Shown here one piece after another: positions 1,915 to 44,427 of a DNA stretch of 64,000 nucleotides (its first letter is position 1; the number at the start of each line of letters is the position of its first letter). Position numbers and translations under genes: made by a program. Under the pieces are notes generated by a model. That model searched no databases and was not told the origin of the DNA. It saw only the letters and a program-made list of their open reading frames with translations. The stretch lies in NCBI GenBank assembly GCA_029850515.1, contig JARCRW010000017.1, positions 8,591 to 72,590 of the forward strand, read 5' to 3'. This DNA comes from Nitrosotalea sp. Lineage in GTDB: Archaea > Thermoproteota > Nitrososphaeria > Nitrososphaerales > Nitrosopumilaceae.

Positions 1915-2739
1915 ATGGAAAAAGTTGCAATAGTGACTGGCAGTTCAAGCGGAATAGGTTTTGAGACTGCACTTGCATTAGCACGTGAAGGATACCACAC
2001 ATATGCAACAATGCGTGATGTCAAAAAAGGAGACAGGATTCTAGACATTGCAAAAAAAGAGAATCTCAAGATCAGTGTAATAGAACTTGATGTCAATAAT
2101 GAAAATACTATTAAAAAAGCAGTTGAGGGCATAATAAGCGAAAAAAAGAGAATTGATGTTCTAGTAAACAATGCAGGTTATTTTCTTGTTGGATGTTTGG
2201 AAGATCTAACGATTACAAACCTAAAGGATCAGTTTGAAACAAACTTTTTTGGAGTGGTAAGAACAATCCAAGCAGTACTGCCCACAATGCGCAGTCAAAA
2301 GTCAGGAACAATAGTAAACATAAGTTCAGTCGCAGGAAGAATAGGCTTTCCAGTGACTCCAGGATACATTAGCTCCAAGTTTGCATTGGAGGGTCTAAGT
2401 GAATCAATGCGATATGAGCTATTTCCGTTTGGAATCAGGACAATAATCATAGAACCTGGAGTCATCAAGACAAACCTGTTTTCGACCCTGAAAAAGGTGA
2501 CAAAGGCAGAGTCTCCGTATAGAGACATGACTGAAAAAGTAATGAAGGGATTATTGATGATGTCAGAGATGGGGACTCCTCCACAAGAGGTTGCCAAGAC
2601 CATAGTCAAAGCAGTTTCATCTGAGAATCCACTGCCCCGCTATCCTGTTGGCAATGACGCAATAATGTTTCTAGAGGCAAAAAAAGACAAGACGGATATC
2701 GAGTTTGAAAATTACATAAAAAAAGAGCTTTTCAGCTAA
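1915..2739 (+). CDS. Short-chain dehydrogenase/reductase (classical SDR)
   Basis: TGSSSGIG Rossmann motif, NNAG, catalytic YxxxK (YISSK). Confidence 0.95.
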   Translation: MEKVAIVTGSSSGIGFETALALAREGYHTYATMRDVKKGDRILDIAKKENLKISVIELDVNNENTIKKAVEGIISEKKRIDVLVNNAGYFLVGCLEDLTITNLKDQFETNFFGVVRTIQAVLPTMRSQKSGTIVNISSVAGRIGFPVTPGYISSKFALEGLSESMRYELFPFGIRTIIIEPGVIKTNLFSTLKKVTKAESPYRDMTEKVMKGLLMMSEMGTPPQEVAKTIVKAVSSENPLPRYPVGNDAIMFLEAKKDKTDIEFENYIKKELFS

Positions 2740-2895
2740 AATACACCTTTTTTGAGACTATTTCACCAGTACTGAAATACTATAGCATAAAATTCTATGA
2801 ATCTCACATGATTCTTTGGGTTAGATTGATATACGACATAAGGCAATTTTTGTCAAAGTCAACAGATTTAATCAAAGATTTAGTGATATTAAAAA

Positions 2896-4461
2896 ATGAA
2901 ATGGAAAACCCTTCAACACAATGGCATTGCGTTTCTTCCGCCCTATGAATCAAAAGGCATAACGGTCAAGATCAAGGGAGAAAAAGTTCCGTTAAACATA
3001 GATGCTGAAGAAATGGCTTACCAGTGGGCAAAAAAGAAAGACACCCCTTATGTCAAGGACCAAGTATTTCAAAAGAATTTTCTTTCCTATTTTGTAAAAA
3101 CACTTCCTGCAAATTTCAAAAATATTTCACTTGCAGATATTGACTTTTCTGAGGCATTCAAGATTGTGGACATGGAAAAAGATTCCAAGTTGACCATGAC
3201 CAAGGAGGAGAAGAAGAAAATTGCAGCTACAAGAAAGGAGATCAAGGAAAAAATGAAGGCAATGTATGGCAAGGCAATAATTGATGGAAAAGAAGTTGAT
3301 GTGGCCAATTGGATGGCAGAACCGCCCGGTCTTTTCATTGGCAGAGGGGACCACCCACTGAGAGGTAAGTGGAAACCACGGATTACAGAAAAAGACGTTA
3401 CACTAAATCTTGGAAAAGACGCCAAAGTTCCCCCAGGTAAATGGGGCAAGATAATCCACGAACAAGACTTTATGTGGCTTGCAAGCTGGGTGGACGTACT
3501 CACGGACAAGAGAAAATACGTATGGCTTTCCGATACATCAGATCTAAAGCAAGAGCGTGACAAGATGAAGTATGACAAGGCAACAAAACTAGCTGCAGAG
3601 ATAGACAAAGTGTTAGGCGCAGTGATAAAGAAAATGTCAGACAAGGATGAGAAGGTACGAAGAGTTGCAACTGTTTGTTATTTGATTTACAAGACTGCAA
3701 TGAGAGTAGGGGATGAAAAAGATCCGGATGAGGCAGACACCGTAGGTGCTACCACACTAAGAGTGGAGCACATAAACCTAAAACCTGGTGTCATAGAGTT
3801 TGATTTTTTGGGAAAAGATAGTGTGCGATGGCAAAAGCCACTTCCAGTGACAGAACAGGACAAGATATTTTTTGAAAATCTCAAAAAACTAACAGAAAAA
3901 AAGAAAAAGGATGATCTCATATTTGATGGAATTACATCAAGACATGTCAATGAGTTTCTATCAGGCATAGTAAAGGGCCTTACTGCAAAAGTATTCAGAA
4001 CATATCTTGCAACACAGGTAGTTACAAACTATCTCAAAAAAGTGGATAGTCTAAAATCAAAATCAGAAAACATCAAGATATACCACGCAAAATTGGCTAA
4101 CTTGGAAGCTGCAATAACATGCAACCACAAGAGAACCATACCAAAGAACTTTGATGAAACATTACAGAAAAAGCGTGAGTCGATCAAGAAACTAAAGGAG
4201 ACAAAACCCAAGACTGAGAAACAAATTGAAAAACTAAAACAACGCGAAGAAAAATTAAAACTCGTACTAGAATTGACAGAAAAAACTCGAGATTATAATT
4301 TGGGAACTTCGCTTCGAAACTACATTGACCCAAGAGTAGTCAAAGCGTGGTCTGATTCAGTTGGACTAGAATGGGAGAAACTTTACACGTCTGCATTACA
4401 AAAGAAATTCCAATGGGTGTCAAAAGTGGATATCAATTGGAAAGAGATTGCGCAAGTTTGA
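2896..4461 (+). CDS. top1: DNA topoisomerase IB (eukaryote-like, thaumarchaeal)
   Basis: Catalytic pentad intact: AMRVGDEK, FLGKDS, KVFRTY, CNHKR, GTSLRNYIDPRV. N-terminal KWKTLQHNG and EPPGLFIGRGDHPLRG match eukaryotic Top1. Confidence 0.97.
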   Translation: MKWKTLQHNGIAFLPPYESKGITVKIKGEKVPLNIDAEEMAYQWAKKKDTPYVKDQVFQKNFLSYFVKTLPANFKNISLADIDFSEAFKIVDMEKDSKLTMTKEEKKKIAATRKEIKEKMKAMYGKAIIDGKEVDVANWMAEPPGLFIGRGDHPLRGKWKPRITEKDVTLNLGKDAKVPPGKWGKIIHEQDFMWLASWVDVLTDKRKYVWLSDTSDLKQERDKMKYDKATKLAAEIDKVLGAVIKKMSDKDEKVRRVATVCYLIYKTAMRVGDEKDPDEADTVGATTLRVEHINLKPGVIEFDFLGKDSVRWQKPLPVTEQDKIFFENLKKLTEKKKKDDLIFDGITSRHVNEFLSGIVKGLTAKVFRTYLATQVVTNYLKKVDSLKSKSENIKIYHAKLANLEAAITCNHKRTIPKNFDETLQKKRESIKKLKETKPKTEKQIEKLKQREEKLKLVLELTEKTRDYNLGTSLRNYIDPRVVKAWSDSVGLEWEKLYTSALQKKFQWVSKVDINWKEIAQV

Positions 4462-6722: not shown

Positions 6723-6907
6723 TTTGAAAATGAAATCCAGTTGCATAATTCTAAGATCATCCAACTTAATCATTTGAGGCAAGTTTCAAATGTATAAAAT
6801 AAGAAATCAGGGGAAAACTCATTAGCACCAAGACTGATTTAACCTCTACCGGCATACTTTTCATAGAGGCGAATACCTTTTATTCTAAGACAGTTCAAAT
6901 ACTGAAA

Positions 6908-7273
6908 ATGTCTAAAAAGATGCTAGTTTTTGCAGCTTTGTTTTCTCTTGTACTATCTATGACAGCAATACAAGAGGCAAGTGCTCTGACTAGAGGTACG
7001 GGCGAATATGGTCGTACCACGTCAATATTTAATCCAACCCAGGTCTGTGGCAACCACATCTGCCAACCCGGAGAGAGTACCAAATGGTCATCAGCTGTAT
7101 TATCATCACAGCGCCAAGGTCCAGGCAAAGCTACAGGTGCACAGTACGGATTCATCATAATGCATCAACTGGTTGTAAACTCTCTGGCAAGAACAGTCTA
7201 TGCAAATCAAACTACTTGGGACCATCCAGTCATGCCAGTACATACAAGCATGAATTCCACTGGATCAAAATAG
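6908..7273 (+). CDS. Secreted hypothetical protein with VCGxHxC disulfide motif
   Basis: Signal peptide ending ASA; VCGNHICQPGE motif. Confidence 0.75.
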   Translation: MSKKMLVFAALFSLVLSMTAIQEASALTRGTGEYGRTTSIFNPTQVCGNHICQPGESTKWSSAVLSSQRQGPGKATGAQYGFIIMHQLVVNSLARTVYANQTTWDHPVMPVHTSMNSTGSK

Positions 7274-41177: not shown

Positions 41178-41600
41178 TTACGCATATTGACCCTTTAAGG
41201 GTGATCTTGCTCCACATGCTTCACACTTGAGAAGGGTCACCCTGTTTTCTTTTTCAACCCGGGTATCTGGACTTTTACAAGTTGGGCATTCAACATATTC
41301 CTTGAGATATCTATTCAAAAGTGCTGAAAATTCATGAGGATCTTTTTTGCCTACAAAGACTGCTTTGTCGCCTCCAAACTGTGCAGGAGTTGCAAACTCT
41401 TTTGATAGATATTGTAAAAGCTTTTCAGGATCTCTTCGCAGTATTTTTGGAAATTCTGAAAAATTTCTGAAAAATGTTCTATTTCCTTGCCACATGATAT
41501 CTACTTTGGGAAGTTCAAATCTTGATGTAGAGCTAGTCTTGGTCTGAGATACTTTATCCTGAATATTCTTTAGTAATTTTTCATATTCGGCTTTTGTCAA
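41178..41600 (-). CDS. eif2b: Translation initiation factor aIF-2 beta subunit
   Basis: RFELP, YLSKEFAT, YVECPTCKSPDT...CEACGA Zn finger. Confidence 0.95.
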   Translation of the reverse strand: MTKAEYEKLLKNIQDKVSQTKTSSTSRFELPKVDIMWQGNRTFFRNFSEFPKILRRDPEKLLQYLSKEFATPAQFGGDKAVFVGKKDPHEFSALLNRYLKEYVECPTCKSPDTRVEKENRVTLLKCEACGARSPLKGQYA

Positions 41601-41761
41601 CTATTCCAGTATGAGAATCGCCACCTATATGGATTTACATGATAAATTTGCCACTTGACACGCATAATGCATGATTAGTCATGAAGACTTGCTCTAAAAT
41701 TGCTAATTCTATTTTTTAGTGAAAATATAATGTATTTTTACAAATTTGTGTCAATTGTATA

Positions 41762-42136
41762 CTAGCCTCTAAATTTTGGCGTACCCTTGGGTTCAGGCAA
41801 GACTTGCCTAGAATGAGTTTTGTTTACCAGCCCTCTAAATACACCCGTCATCATTTCGAGTTCTTTTTTTCTATCCCTCATATCTTGTGTCCCTTTAAAT
41901 AATTCAATTAGCATTTTAGCGTTTAGTTCAAGATCCATGTCTTCAAGGAACTTTGCTCCACCTCTTATTACATCAGCAGCGTTGACCATCCTTTCTATAG
42001 CATCCAGATCAGTCGGGTTTTTTTCTAGTTTTTGTAGACAATTAAAGACAAGTTTAGTCAATCTTGAGCATTCTTCAAGGAACAGGTTTTTGTGCATCTC
42101 AATGAGAGCCATGCCATAGTACCGTACTTTCCCCAT
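41762..42136 (-). CDS. Stand-alone CheA-P1/Hpt-like four-helix protein with Asp at the phospho-His position
   Basis: FLEEC...LQKLEKNPTDLDAIERMVNAADVIRGGAKFL aligns without gaps to the CheA P1 pattern LEKNPED-x3-I-x5-A-x-H-x-LKG. Confidence 0.72.
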   Translation of the reverse strand: MGKVRYYGMALIEMHKNLFLEECSRLTKLVFNCLQKLEKNPTDLDAIERMVNAADVIRGGAKFLEDMDLELNAKMLIELFKGTQDMRDRKKELEMMTGVFRGLVNKTHSRQVLPEPKGTPKFRG

Positions 42137-42243
42137 TTAAGGTGATCGTCAAGTAAAAATTCCCCTATATAGATAACAACATAATTTAGTACCATAATAG
42201 TTCTACCAAGAACTTATCCATACGTCCCGGACATAATAATCAA

Positions 42244-42405
42244 TTGCCGCGAAAAGAATACAAAACAATCACAGTAAAATCAGAGGCTTTTCAGAAATTT
42301 GTAAAGGCCATAAGAGATGCAAAAAAGAATGATCCCTCCATGGATAATAGTACATTTCTAAATTCACTCATAACTAAATACCAGAAAAACAGGAGATCGT
42401 CCTGA
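42244..42405 (+). CDS. 53-aa RHH-like DNA-binding microprotein (not in ORF track)
   Basis: Hand translation from TTG: MPRKEYKTITVKSEAFQKFVKAIRDAKKNDPSMDNSTFLNSLITKYQKNRRSS; ribbon KTITVK plus two helices. Confidence 0.68.
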   Translation: MPRKEYKTITVKSEAFQKFVKAIRDAKKNDPSMDNSTFLNSLITKYQKNRRSS

Positions 42406-42431
42406 TTGAGGATAGATGATTCTGTTACGTC

Positions 42432-42758
42432 ATGGCCAAAATAAAGATAAACATGTCAATTGGCGAACTAATGATCGAATTTACTGATACATCAGACTTG
42501 GAAAATCAATTAAAAAACATTGATCTTTCCGAGATAGAATCACTGCTTTCAAGAAAAATTCATTGTCATCCACATACAAAAGAATCCATACATGTAACCC
42601 CAAGAGAGGCACAAATTGTAGAAGAACTTGGTACCGTGAATCTATTGAAGGTATCAGAGGGAGGTCAAGATGCTACAAAACTTGCCATATTCTTGTCTGC
42701 AAATAAAATGAATTCGGAAGACGTCAAAAAGATAACAGGTATAACAATACGGAGTTGA
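42432..42758 (+). CDS. Hypothetical protein
   Basis: 108-aa ORF, coding-like, follows the RHH gene. Confidence 0.65.
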   Translation: MAKIKINMSIGELMIEFTDTSDLENQLKNIDLSEIESLLSRKIHCHPHTKESIHVTPREAQIVEELGTVNLLKVSEGGQDATKLAIFLSANKMNSEDVKKITGITIRS

Positions 42759-42762
42759 TAAT

Positions 42763-42996
42763 ATGTCAATAATAGAAAACCAAAACATCCCATCACTTTT
42801 AGAAATGTGGGAGTTCATTGGTAAAAATCTGAATCCAGTTGGAATGACACCAGACAAGGCAAGTTTGGATCATATGCAGATTTTTAGACTGTATGTAGAA
42901 TTGCGAAATTTAGATAAAACATTCAGAGATTCAATACAGGTACATGTGTTAAGAAATGAATTGGCATATTCTTTGTTATCTACCTTGGTAAATTAG
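42763..42996 (+). CDS. Hypothetical protein
   Basis: 77-aa ORF starting 4 nt after the upstream stop. Confidence 0.5.
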   Translation: MSIIENQNIPSLLEMWEFIGKNLNPVGMTPDKASLDHMQIFRLYVELRNLDKTFRDSIQVHVLRNELAYSLLSTLVN

Positions 42997-43103: not shown

Positions 43104-44231
43104 GTGGCAAAAAACGAGAACGAGTCTTATAATTACAAGGAAGAGGATCTCAACATCCTGTTAGAACGCTATGAAAAAATGTCAGAAAAATACAGAAATT
43201 TATATGATAACTCGCCAGATCTTTATAGAACAATCAATATCGATGGCATCATTTTAGATTGCAACAAGACCTATGCAAGCAAACTAGGATACAAAAAAGA
43301 AGAGATCATTGGCAAAACAATTTTTGAGCACGTGTCAGAAAACAGTCAGAAACTATTACAAGATGCATATAACACGTGGAAAACTACAGGGATTGTATCA
43401 AGTAGAGAGATATGGTTAAGACGAAAAGACCAAACAATATTTCCAGTTTTGCTCAGCGCTACCAGTCTATACGGTAACGATGGTATGCTTGTAGGAAGTA
43501 ATACTACGATAAAGGATATGACTGAGATCTATAACGCAAAAAAAGAAATTGAAGAACACAAACTAAAAAATCTCAATGTCATAGGAGATCTCTCCGCTAG
43601 AATATCACATGATTTTAGAAATCCCATATCAATAATCAGAAATAGTCTAGAACTAATGAAGATGCAAAACCATGATCTCAGTGAGAAAAACAAGAATCAC
43701 ATATTGATGATGGAGCGGGCCATTGCCAGAATATCTCACCAGTTAGAAGAGGTTTTAGACTATGTCTTGCCAAGACCACTGGATCTTCAGATCCATTCAT
43801 TATGTAATATCATAGAGGCTGCAATCTCCAAGATAGACTTTGGAAAAGTAGTGTTGAGCGTTCCAAAAGAGGATCATATCATAGTATGCGATGGAGCAAA
43901 AATTGAGATTGTTCTTACTAACCTCATACTAAATGCGGTTCAAGCTATGGAGAAAAAAGGTAACATATTTGTAAAAATCAATGACATGGCAGATTCCATC
44001 ACAATAGAAGTGGAAGACACTGGTCATGGCATACCAAAACATCTGATAGAAAAAATGTTTGAGCCCCTATTTACGACAAGACAGATTGGAACAGGTTTAG
44101 GGTTGGTCAGCTGCAAGAGCATCATAGAAAAACACAATGGAACAATCAACATACGCACTCAGATTGGAAAGGGAACTACATTCATCATAAAACTACCAAA
44201 ACTCCAACCACTCAAGACTCCCGAGTTGTAG
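43104..44231 (+). CDS. Cytoplasmic PAS-domain sensor histidine kinase
   Basis: PAS (YRNLYDNSPD...GIILDCN...LGY), HisKA SHDFRNP, N box NLILNAVQA, DTGHG, FEPLFTT, GTGLGL, GTTF. Confidence 0.95.
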   Translation: MAKNENESYNYKEEDLNILLERYEKMSEKYRNLYDNSPDLYRTINIDGIILDCNKTYASKLGYKKEEIIGKTIFEHVSENSQKLLQDAYNTWKTTGIVSSREIWLRRKDQTIFPVLLSATSLYGNDGMLVGSNTTIKDMTEIYNAKKEIEEHKLKNLNVIGDLSARISHDFRNPISIIRNSLELMKMQNHDLSEKNKNHILMMERAIARISHQLEEVLDYVLPRPLDLQIHSLCNIIEAAISKIDFGKVVLSVPKEDHIIVCDGAKIEIVLTNLILNAVQAMEKKGNIFVKINDMADSITIEVEDTGHGIPKHLIEKMFEPLFTTRQIGTGLGLVSCKSIIEKHNGTINIRTQIGKGTTFIIKLPKLQPLKTPEL

Positions 44232-44283: not shown

Positions 44284-44427
44284 CTAAGGCTTTCCTATTC
44301 GGAAGACATTAGTACCACATTTTGGGCACACGCCCTTGACCGCAGGTCGTCCGTTCTTTAGCTTAACTTCCTTTGGGTTTGAGATATCGACTTTTTTTCT
44401 GCATTTTACGCAGTATGCTTGAGTCAT
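44284..44427 (-). CDS. DUF5679-type 47-aa zinc-ribbon protein (not in ORF track)
   Basis: Hand translation MTQAYCVKCRKKVDISNPKEVKLKNGRPAVKGVCPKCGTNVFRIGKP. Confidence 0.88.
   Translation of the reverse strand: MTQAYCVKCRKKVDISNPKEVKLKNGRPAVKGVCPKCGTNVFRIGKP

Follow-up and report, generated by a model that had tools for sequence, protein, structure and literature searches.

A stand-alone CheA-P1-type protein with Asp in place of the phospho-accepting His in Nitrosotalea and related archaea

The Hpt-like protein and its relatives

The stretch of DNA analysed here (64 kb in length, referred to as the window) comes from Nitrosotalea, an acid-loving ammonia-oxidising archaeon. On its minus strand, a mechanically called open reading frame (ORF) of 124 amino acids (aa) at 41762-42136 encodes a small protein, here called Hpt-D, that is homologous to P1, the histidine phosphotransfer (Hpt) domain of the kinase CheA. 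The ORF is present as given in a preliminary description of this DNA, and its Asp55, which occupies the place of the phospho-accepting His, is contained in LEKNPTDLDAIERMVNAADVIRGGA and in LEKNPTDLDAIERMVNAADVIRGGAKFL. The gene is followed by that of aIF2-beta and is divergent from three small genes, beyond which a PAS histidine kinase is encoded (Table 1). Hpt-D and its relatives are four-helix bundles that stand alone and derive from Hpt domains of the CheA-P1 type, and the earlier proposal of a free-standing CheA-P1/Hpt homologue devoid of the phospho-His was borne out by the profile comparisons presented in this section.

The closest relatives of Hpt-D comprise 67 homologues with 53-97 % identity, whose source names are Nitrosotalea, Nitrosopumilaceae or Thaumarchaeota. 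An alignment of 34 close homologues contains 14 invariant columns, and its position 55 is always Asp or Glu. The Hpt model of Pfam matched only two of these 34 members, with a best E-value of 0.011, which is below the gathering threshold. When the single protein was used as query in phmmer, it aligned to CheA P1 of Thermotoga maritima (2ld6/1tqg) with E-values of 0.26-0.39 and with D55 placed on His45; the gap-free alignment given in the preliminary description was thereby reproduced. Searches of the PDB with profiles also retrieved CheA P1, with an E-value of 0.007 for the profile of the Nitrosotalea set, and with E-values of 5e-4 for T. maritima (1tqg, 2ld6), 0.008 for E. coli (8c5v) and 0.019 for Salmonella (1i5n) for a broader family profile.

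The family profile was also compared (using HMMER) with 1.84 billion representative proteins, which resulted in 77 matches with E-values of 1e-3 or lower. The best 20 or so of these 77, together with a few short ones further down, are small stand-alone proteins containing the motif x-A-D-x-I-x-G-x-A-[KR]-F-L, and the remaining matches, starting from an E-value of about 1e-10, are multi-Hpt proteins of the CheA/ChpA type and small Hpt proteins containing A-A-H-[ST]-[IL]-K-G. Those His-bearing matches that were scanned turned out to be bona fide members of PF01627 (E-values from 1e-20 to 9e-42). Moreover, a direct comparison by hhalign of the family alignment (A2) with an alignment of 15 Hpt domains (A4) gave a probability of 98.5 % and an E-value of 3.9e-15 over 78 columns, with the Asp placed on the His. 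Two of the bacterial multi-Hpt proteins, P0087 (residues 14-75) and P0104 (residues 15-81), have Gln in their first Hpt domain (A-I-Q-A-I-K-G-G-A), and their later domains keep the His.

With regard to structure, the AlphaFold2 model of Hpt-D is a four-helix bundle (pLDDT 83, pTM 0.73). Leaving designed bundles aside, the best matches of this model in the PDB, as judged by Foldseek, were the CheA P1 structures 1tqg, 3kyi/3kyj, 1i5n and 2ld6; further Hpt proteins (3myf, 7c1i and 1wn0) came next, interspersed with chains of the chaperone FliS. The natural matches had probabilities near 1 and TM scores of 0.55-0.70, and their E-values were weak, which is common with helical bundles. A match to Hpt was found both with hhalign and with Foldseek. 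As judged by Pfam, Hpt-D is a single domain and lacks the dimerisation (P3), HATPase (P4) and CheW-like (P5) domains of CheA; the Joint Genome Institute label 'CheA' on some homologues reflects similarity to P1 alone. Neither the query nor any of the 34 members matched the Pfam models of NitrOD1, NitrOD2 or NitrOD5 (PF18549, PF18550 and PF11537) at E-values up to 10, whereas NitrOD3 and NitrOD4 are without a Pfam model (PMC5847659).

The named sources of the family are Nitrosotalea, Nitrosopumilus, Nitrosarchaeum and Nitrosotenuis, and no member was seen outside the Nitrosopumilales in the homologue, word-indexed and locus searches. It should be underlined that this range is a lower bound, because the locus scan, which was based on a narrower alignment (A3), used a strict pattern and gave only four loci; the word-indexed search with the A2 alignment added few distant members. 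Members of the Nitrosopumilus/Nitrosarchaeum type (P0073, P0083, P0145, P0147, P0151 and the protein encoded at 3089-3478 of locus L007) have a C-terminal tail, C-P-x-G-Y-x5-7-C, which is absent in the Nitrosotalea proteins.

The site of the missing histidine

Among 108 family members the column of the phospho-accepting His contains Asp in 89, Glu in 18 and Asn in one (P0081), and never His. In the Hpt domains aligned with the same profile, His is found in 105 of 112. The Asp is thus conserved in the homologues, with Glu and Asn as its only substitutes. The change is not confined to this one column. Comparison of 28 family representatives, sharing less than 60 % identity, with the Hpt set showed that the Arg of Hpt domains at position -3 relative to the site (94 %) is replaced by Gln or Asn, the Lys at +3 (95 %) by Met, Ile or Arg, the His at +19 (88 %) by Lys or Thr, and the Glu at +22 (98 %) by Val, Ile or Leu. 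It is these Lys, His and Glu residues which, in CheA P1, tune the phospho-His through a network of hydrogen bonds. The earlier statement that the surrounding P1 pattern is retained must accordingly be revised, as four further conserved residues of the site have been exchanged.

Other parts of the domain have been kept. The family shares with Hpt domains F19 and E22 in helix A (the F-x-x-E motif), L37, P41 and D43 in the L-E-K-N-P-x-D turn, A54 just before the site, G59, A61 and [KR]62 at +4, +6 and +7, and A73. The glycine at +4 (H+4) is present in 100 of the 108 family members and in 101 of the 112 Hpt domains, and among representatives in 93 % versus 90 %. This residue has a role in receiver docking, as is known from the literature (PMC6341664).

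In the preliminary description it was pointed out that the Asp codon is one transversion from a His codon, which suggests a recent change. This does not hold: because the whole His/Lys/His/Glu network is replaced across four genera, the exchange of His for Asp is not recent. As judged from the sequences, the phosphotransfer chemistry was lost long ago, and a carboxylate has been kept at the site under selection. The proteins lack defining features of Hpt domains, namely the His, the Lys at +3 and the Glu at +22, and they score below the Pfam threshold. The family differs from CheA P1 and from PF01627 also in consisting of stand-alone proteins of about 100-116 aa without any of the domains P2-P5, and it should be placed under 'Hpt-like' or 'pseudo-Hpt' and not under Hpt or CheA.

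A carboxylate conserved exactly at the acceptor position, in a protein associated with kinases and receiver (REC) domains (see below), might be taken to mean that Asp55, or Glu, is itself the phospho-acceptor and relays phosphate as acyl phosphate on an Hpt scaffold, as had been suggested earlier. We consider this highly improbable. Asp, Glu and Asn are interchangeable at the site, and the Lys at +3 and the Glu at +22 have been lost rather than adapted. REC domains need an acidic cluster for binding Mg2+ together with Thr and Lys; no metal-binding acidic cluster is apparent in Hpt-D, nor are there equivalents of the Thr and Lys.

The remaining explanation of the Asp that concerns the site itself is that the gene is a decaying Hpt pseudogene, or that CAT was read as GAT. 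The single-base difference between the two codons and the failure of the query alone to reach the Pfam threshold speak for it. The evidence against it is such that we regard this explanation as refuted. None of the 108 homologues from four genera has His, and the dN/dS ratio (nonsynonymous to synonymous substitution rates) of the gene among Nitrosotalea orthologues is 0.11-0.13, with dS being saturated, which indicates purifying selection. One sequencing run alone, a mine-drainage metagenome, contained 99 % of the sequence words that make up this stretch, and the contigs from this source run are identical to the window. In contigs from related strains, the codon at 41972-41974 does not vary, while the third letters of the two neighbouring codons (41969 and 41975) do. 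These findings rule out a sequencing error as well as decay.

Transcription is indicated by a contig from soil metatranscriptome assemblies that spans 41791-42096 with about 91 % identity. This contig is distinct from, and deeper than, the one covering aIF2-beta, and a gap at 41598-41768 separates the two. The evidence consists of assembled contigs and not of reads, and carry-over of DNA is possible. Together these results demonstrate that the Hpt-D gene is real, selected and transcribed. A foreign or mobile origin was also considered and rejected, as the GC content is flat (0.34-0.41 over 39-46 kb of the window, in a low-GC archaeon) and the synteny is conserved.

Genomic context in Nitrosotalea and in other genera

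The 124-aa ORF probably extends too far upstream. Its true start is probably not at 42136, as first assumed, but at the second in-frame ATG (M9, at 42112), which gives a protein of 116 aa and would imply a leaderless mRNA. Three observations led to this assignment: MAL is the N-terminus of many Nitrosotalea homologues and of all distant ones; in P0046 and P0058, indels situated between the first ATG and M9 shift the reading frame; and the sequence TTAAAT is located about 26 nt upstream of 42112, a spacing that is judged by the usual distance between archaeal TATA boxes and start sites. TTAAAT is part of ACCTTAAATGG, a block that is invariant in an upstream alignment of four Nitrosotalea loci, and it is a better candidate than the TATA-like element previously placed at 42166-42176, which is not conserved in two of the other Nitrosotalea loci (L001 and L002). 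The N-terminal MGKVRYYG of the mechanical ORF is probably untranslated, its first ATG falling inside the conserved TTAAAT box. Further upstream, the conserved block at 42203-42233 may be a regulatory site, either operator or promoter element, that is shared with the divergent genes. A plus-strand ORF at 41820-42119, antisense to the conserved Hpt-D gene, was rejected as its shadow.

Table 1. Features at the Hpt-D gene of the window and two-component genes at Hpt-D loci outside Nitrosotalea
Locus	Feature	Position	Strand	Remarks
Window	aIF2-beta gene	41178..41600	-	directly downstream of Hpt-D gene, same strand
Window	Hpt-D coding sequence, most likely	41762..42112	-	116 aa, MALIEMHKNLF...; mechanical ORF reaches 42136
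Window	Gly59 codon ('H+4' glycine)	41960..41962	-	kept from canonical Hpt domains
Window	Asp55 codon GAT	41972..41974 (read 41974-41972)	-	site of phospho-accepting His in Hpt/CheA P1
Window	TTAAAT, candidate archaeal TATA box	42135..42140 (42140-42135)	-	upstream of M9 ATG; overlaps first ATG (42136)
Window	Conserved 31-nt intergenic block TGTCCGGGAC.TATGGATAAG..CTTGGTA	42203..42233	.	between Hpt-D gene and divergent 53-aa gene; four Nitrosotalea loci aligned
Window	Three small divergent genes (53, 108 and 77 aa)	42244..42996	+	53- and 77-aa genes syntenic in all Nitrosotalea loci
Window	PAS-HisKA-HATPase kinase	43104..44231	+	cytoplasmic, not hybrid; H-box SHDFRNP; nearest two-component gene
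L007 (Nitrosarchaeum)	REC	510-911
L007	M10-like peptidase	908-1825
L007	Membrane HisKA kinase	1822-2868
L007	74-aa Cys/His protein	2865-3089
L007	Hpt-D	3089-3478
L009 (Nitrosotenuis)	REC, kinase, 53-aa Cys/His protein, Hpt-D	1263-1424 (53-aa protein)		same tight order
L006	Two REC genes and 544-aa kinase			just upstream of Hpt-D; REC and NitrOD1 downstream
L004 (Nitrosopumilus), L011, L012	Kinase and REC genes			at 1-7 kb from Hpt-D

In the Nitrosotalea loci (the window and L001-L003), the Hpt-D gene is always located before the genes of aIF2-beta, DUF424, aIF1A, Rio1, a KH protein and TopoVI-B/A, all on the same strand, and this synteny is limited to Nitrosotalea. With regard to the other side, the divergent gene string proposed earlier is present, but the ribbon-helix-helix label given to its leading gene could not be confirmed: the 53-aa gene had no match in Pfam, NCBIfam or the PDB sequences, and no family match was obtained for any of the three small genes. 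The PAS kinase reported at a distance of about 1 kb was confirmed; it starts 968 bp from the ORF and matches HATPase_c (1e-26), PAS (8e-13) and HisKA (2e-10) in Pfam, and is a candidate partner system of Hpt-D as judged from its position. Just past the kinase lies a Cys-rich ORF of 47 aa (44284-44427, minus strand), whose counterpart in L003, at a conserved position, is DUF5679 zinc-ribbon-like.

Outside Nitrosotalea the gene is found together with two-component genes, and in Nitrosarchaeum and Nitrosotenuis it is the last gene of a REC/HisKA-kinase operon (Table 1). In L007 the stop and start codons overlap at every junction. When the Nitrosotalea loci are taken as one of eight independent contexts, kinase genes occur within 7 kb of Hpt-D in seven of the eight and REC genes in six, so that the earlier suggestion of a link to two-component genes was strengthened. 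For comparison, about 1 % of thaumarchaeal genes encode a histidine kinase or a response regulator (399 of 36,321 proteins; PMC5847659, Table 1). The only context without kinase or REC neighbours is L008, from a Nitrosarchaeum metagenome-assembled genome. The Hpt-D copy in this locus (6815-7129) lacks an ATG, GTG or TTG where the start would be expected, and a frame shift follows KKIDQFG near the C-terminus; the copy may be decaying, or the assembly may be in error.

As judged by eye from the translations, the operon kinases (H-box AHELKNP) and the operon RECs, in which the acidic pocket, Asp, Thr and Lys are present, have a canonical look. The kinases near Hpt-D are not hybrid, and a phosphorelay Hpt is therefore not needed. 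They are of the HisKA type, and no link was found between the family and the kinase cores of CheA, which had been named as a possible target.

Several further features of these loci deserve mention. Directly upstream of Hpt-D, a protein of 53-74 aa with the pattern C-x2-C ... W-Y-H-x2-C-F is encoded in L007, L009 and also L008 (6597-6815). It has weak matches to half-LIM and zf-FLZ, and its stop codon overlaps or abuts the start of Hpt-D in Nitrosarchaeum and Nitrosotenuis, which makes it a candidate fourth partner. P0077 (233 aa) is a fusion of Hpt-D to a C-terminal domain resembling the product of a DUF6659-like gene that is divergent from Hpt-D in L008 (6068-6415, minus strand; BLASTP 8e-7), a possible Rosetta-stone link between the two. 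In L011, gas-vesicle genes (two GvpA-like, GvpK and GvpL/F; 2086-3991) lie between kinase and REC genes 3-5 kb upstream of Hpt-D, which hints at a buoyancy locus under two-component control. Finally, L013 (2789-5327) contains a PAS kinase gene, a REC gene and, as last gene, that of a stand-alone Hpt which has retained its His (P0132), with two further RECs divergent. P0132 resembles Hpt-D in size, in its terminal operon position after kinase and REC, and by detectable homology. It differs in keeping A-A-H-S-L-K-G and in matching Pfam Hpt with an E-value of 7e-5, whereas the Asp family cannot take phosphate on His. The kinase-REC-Hpt operon of P0132 may represent the ancestral arrangement of the Asp family.

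Possible function of Hpt-D

The explanation that we favour, and to which we attach moderate confidence, is that Hpt-D is a pseudo-Hpt that docks on receiver domains without carrying phosphate, serving as an accessory of pathways composed of HisKA kinases and REC-only regulators. Complex structures of Hpt and REC proteins show that the His position faces the active site of the REC. If Hpt-D no longer shuttles phosphate and REC docking persists through the retained face of helices A and B and the H+4 glycine, then the conserved carboxylate would face this active site, and binding would depend on the phosphate or the Mg2+ present there. As a third component, Hpt-D might in this way hold the REC protein, compete for it or read out its state. 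It could also be the docking or output partner of the many output-less RECs of ammonia-oxidising archaea; about 75 % of the thaumarchaeal response regulators are REC-only (PMC5847659).

A number of observations weigh against this explanation. The tie between Hpt-D and its putative REC and kinase partners is one of genomic association, and the enrichment among neighbours is not as independent as a simple count suggests, two-component genes being prone to clustering in these genomes. In agreement with the preliminary description, no REC gene was detected in the 64-kb window, either by phmmer or by a REC hidden Markov model built from related loci, and the conserved neighbours in Nitrosotalea are genes of translation and ribosome biogenesis with no REC nearby. 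In the window and in L003 the PAS kinase lies at a distance of about 1 kb; it was not called in L001, and is thus a neighbour in only some Nitrosotalea loci. Furthermore, the query alone is below the Pfam threshold for Hpt and had no family in the Pfam and NCBIfam scans. C23, F63, L69, E70, F80 and D85 are conserved in the family only, and appear to point to a partly new surface.

Several of these points would fit a reuse of the Hpt fold outside two-component signalling, for instance as a helical adaptor that works with the translation-initiation and ribosome-biogenesis genes: the strict same-strand order before aIF2-beta, DUF424, aIF1A, Rio1 and KH that is seen in every Nitrosotalea locus, the lack of a REC in the window, the loss of all phosphotransfer residues and the residues specific to the family. 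We nevertheless find such a reuse quite improbable. Beyond Nitrosotalea there is no synteny with aIF2-beta, and the gene is located in or beside kinase/REC operons. The separate RNA contigs of different depth, the 160-nt gap and a conserved promoter-like box of its own argue against co-transcription with aIF2-beta even in Nitrosotalea, while the retained H+4 glycine and the helix A/B signature fit with REC docking.

A pseudo-Hpt docking on RECs, as favoured here, may act in different ways, as a decoy, a sensor of the phospho-state or a phosphatase helper. The last of these borders on a separate explanation, in which Hpt-D is a receiver phosphatase derived from Hpt, or an enhancer of dephosphorylation. 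It would dock on the phosphorylated REC, and its carboxylate would position or activate water, or the Mg2+, so that the acyl phosphate is hydrolysed, a role like that of CheZ, CheX/CheC or Rap. The strict conservation of a carboxylate or amide (Asp, Glu or Asn) where Hpt faces the REC active site is in line with this; insertion of an acid/amide pair is known from REC phosphatases, the operons contain complete kinase-REC pairs that have no need of an Hpt, and REC-only regulators dominate in these archaea (PMC5847659). However, the family motif A-D-x-I-x-G-x-A-[KR]-F-L contains neither the D-x3-Q of CheZ nor the E-x2-N of CheX/CheC, the residue at +4 being Gly and that at +3 hydrophobic or Arg, and HisKA kinases usually provide phosphatase activity themselves. 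A phosphatase proper is therefore, in our opinion, unlikely, although less so than a role outside signalling.

Among known systems, the pseudo-Hpt AHP6 of Arabidopsis, which inhibits a phosphorelay (PMC3572949), resembles Hpt-D in being an Hpt protein without the phospho-accepting His. Unlike AHP6, the archaeal family arose independently from CheA-P1-type domains, with no AHP-type proteins among the profile matches; it mostly has a carboxylate at the site, and has lost the other site residues as well. AHP6 reportedly carries Asn at the His position, as does the archaeal P0081. Since the neighbouring kinases of Hpt-D are non-hybrid, no phosphorelay is evident that it could inhibit. By analogy, Hpt-D would be a functional counterpart of AHP6 with an independent origin. 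The Xpt domains (Spt/Tpt) of ChpA from P. aeruginosa are likewise of the CheA-P1 type with the His replaced (PMC10896506), but they are internal to large bacterial kinases beside functional Hpt domains, whereas the archaeal family is free-standing and has a conserved acidic residue.

To our knowledge, no stand-alone pseudo-Hpt family has been known from prokaryotes. In line with the preliminary description, targeted literature searches found no description of an Asp-substituted or His-less stand-alone Hpt from archaea or other prokaryotes. The archaeal two-component census does not describe an Asp-Hpt family (PMC5847659), and an earlier survey, which counted HPt domains in seven of eleven thaumarchaeal proteomes, made no remark on the site (PMC4558063); censuses of 'HPt' matches in Thaumarchaeota may consequently include proteins that are unable to relay phosphate. 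If Hpt-D is a true pseudo-Hpt, it would be the first such family in prokaryotes and an independent parallel to plant AHP6. The family also represents a natural experiment on what becomes of an Hpt scaffold after the His chemistry has been removed.

Ammonia-oxidising archaea possess many histidine kinases, and their response regulators are, unusually, mostly receiver-only with unknown outputs (PMC5847659). Hpt-D is conserved, expressed and derived from Hpt, and its gene belongs to kinase-REC operons although the protein is unable to take phosphate on His; it is therefore a concrete candidate, and one that can be tested cheaply, for a component that these pathways are missing. We tentatively propose, with a good deal less confidence than we have in docking as such, that Asp-Hpt proteins could be a new two-component element specific to ammonia-oxidising archaea, which reads or resets the phosphorylation of output-less RECs, either as an output adaptor or as a receiver phosphatase that makes use of the carboxylate. 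If this is true, Hpt-D would provide a first handle on REC-only signalling in the Nitrosopumilales.

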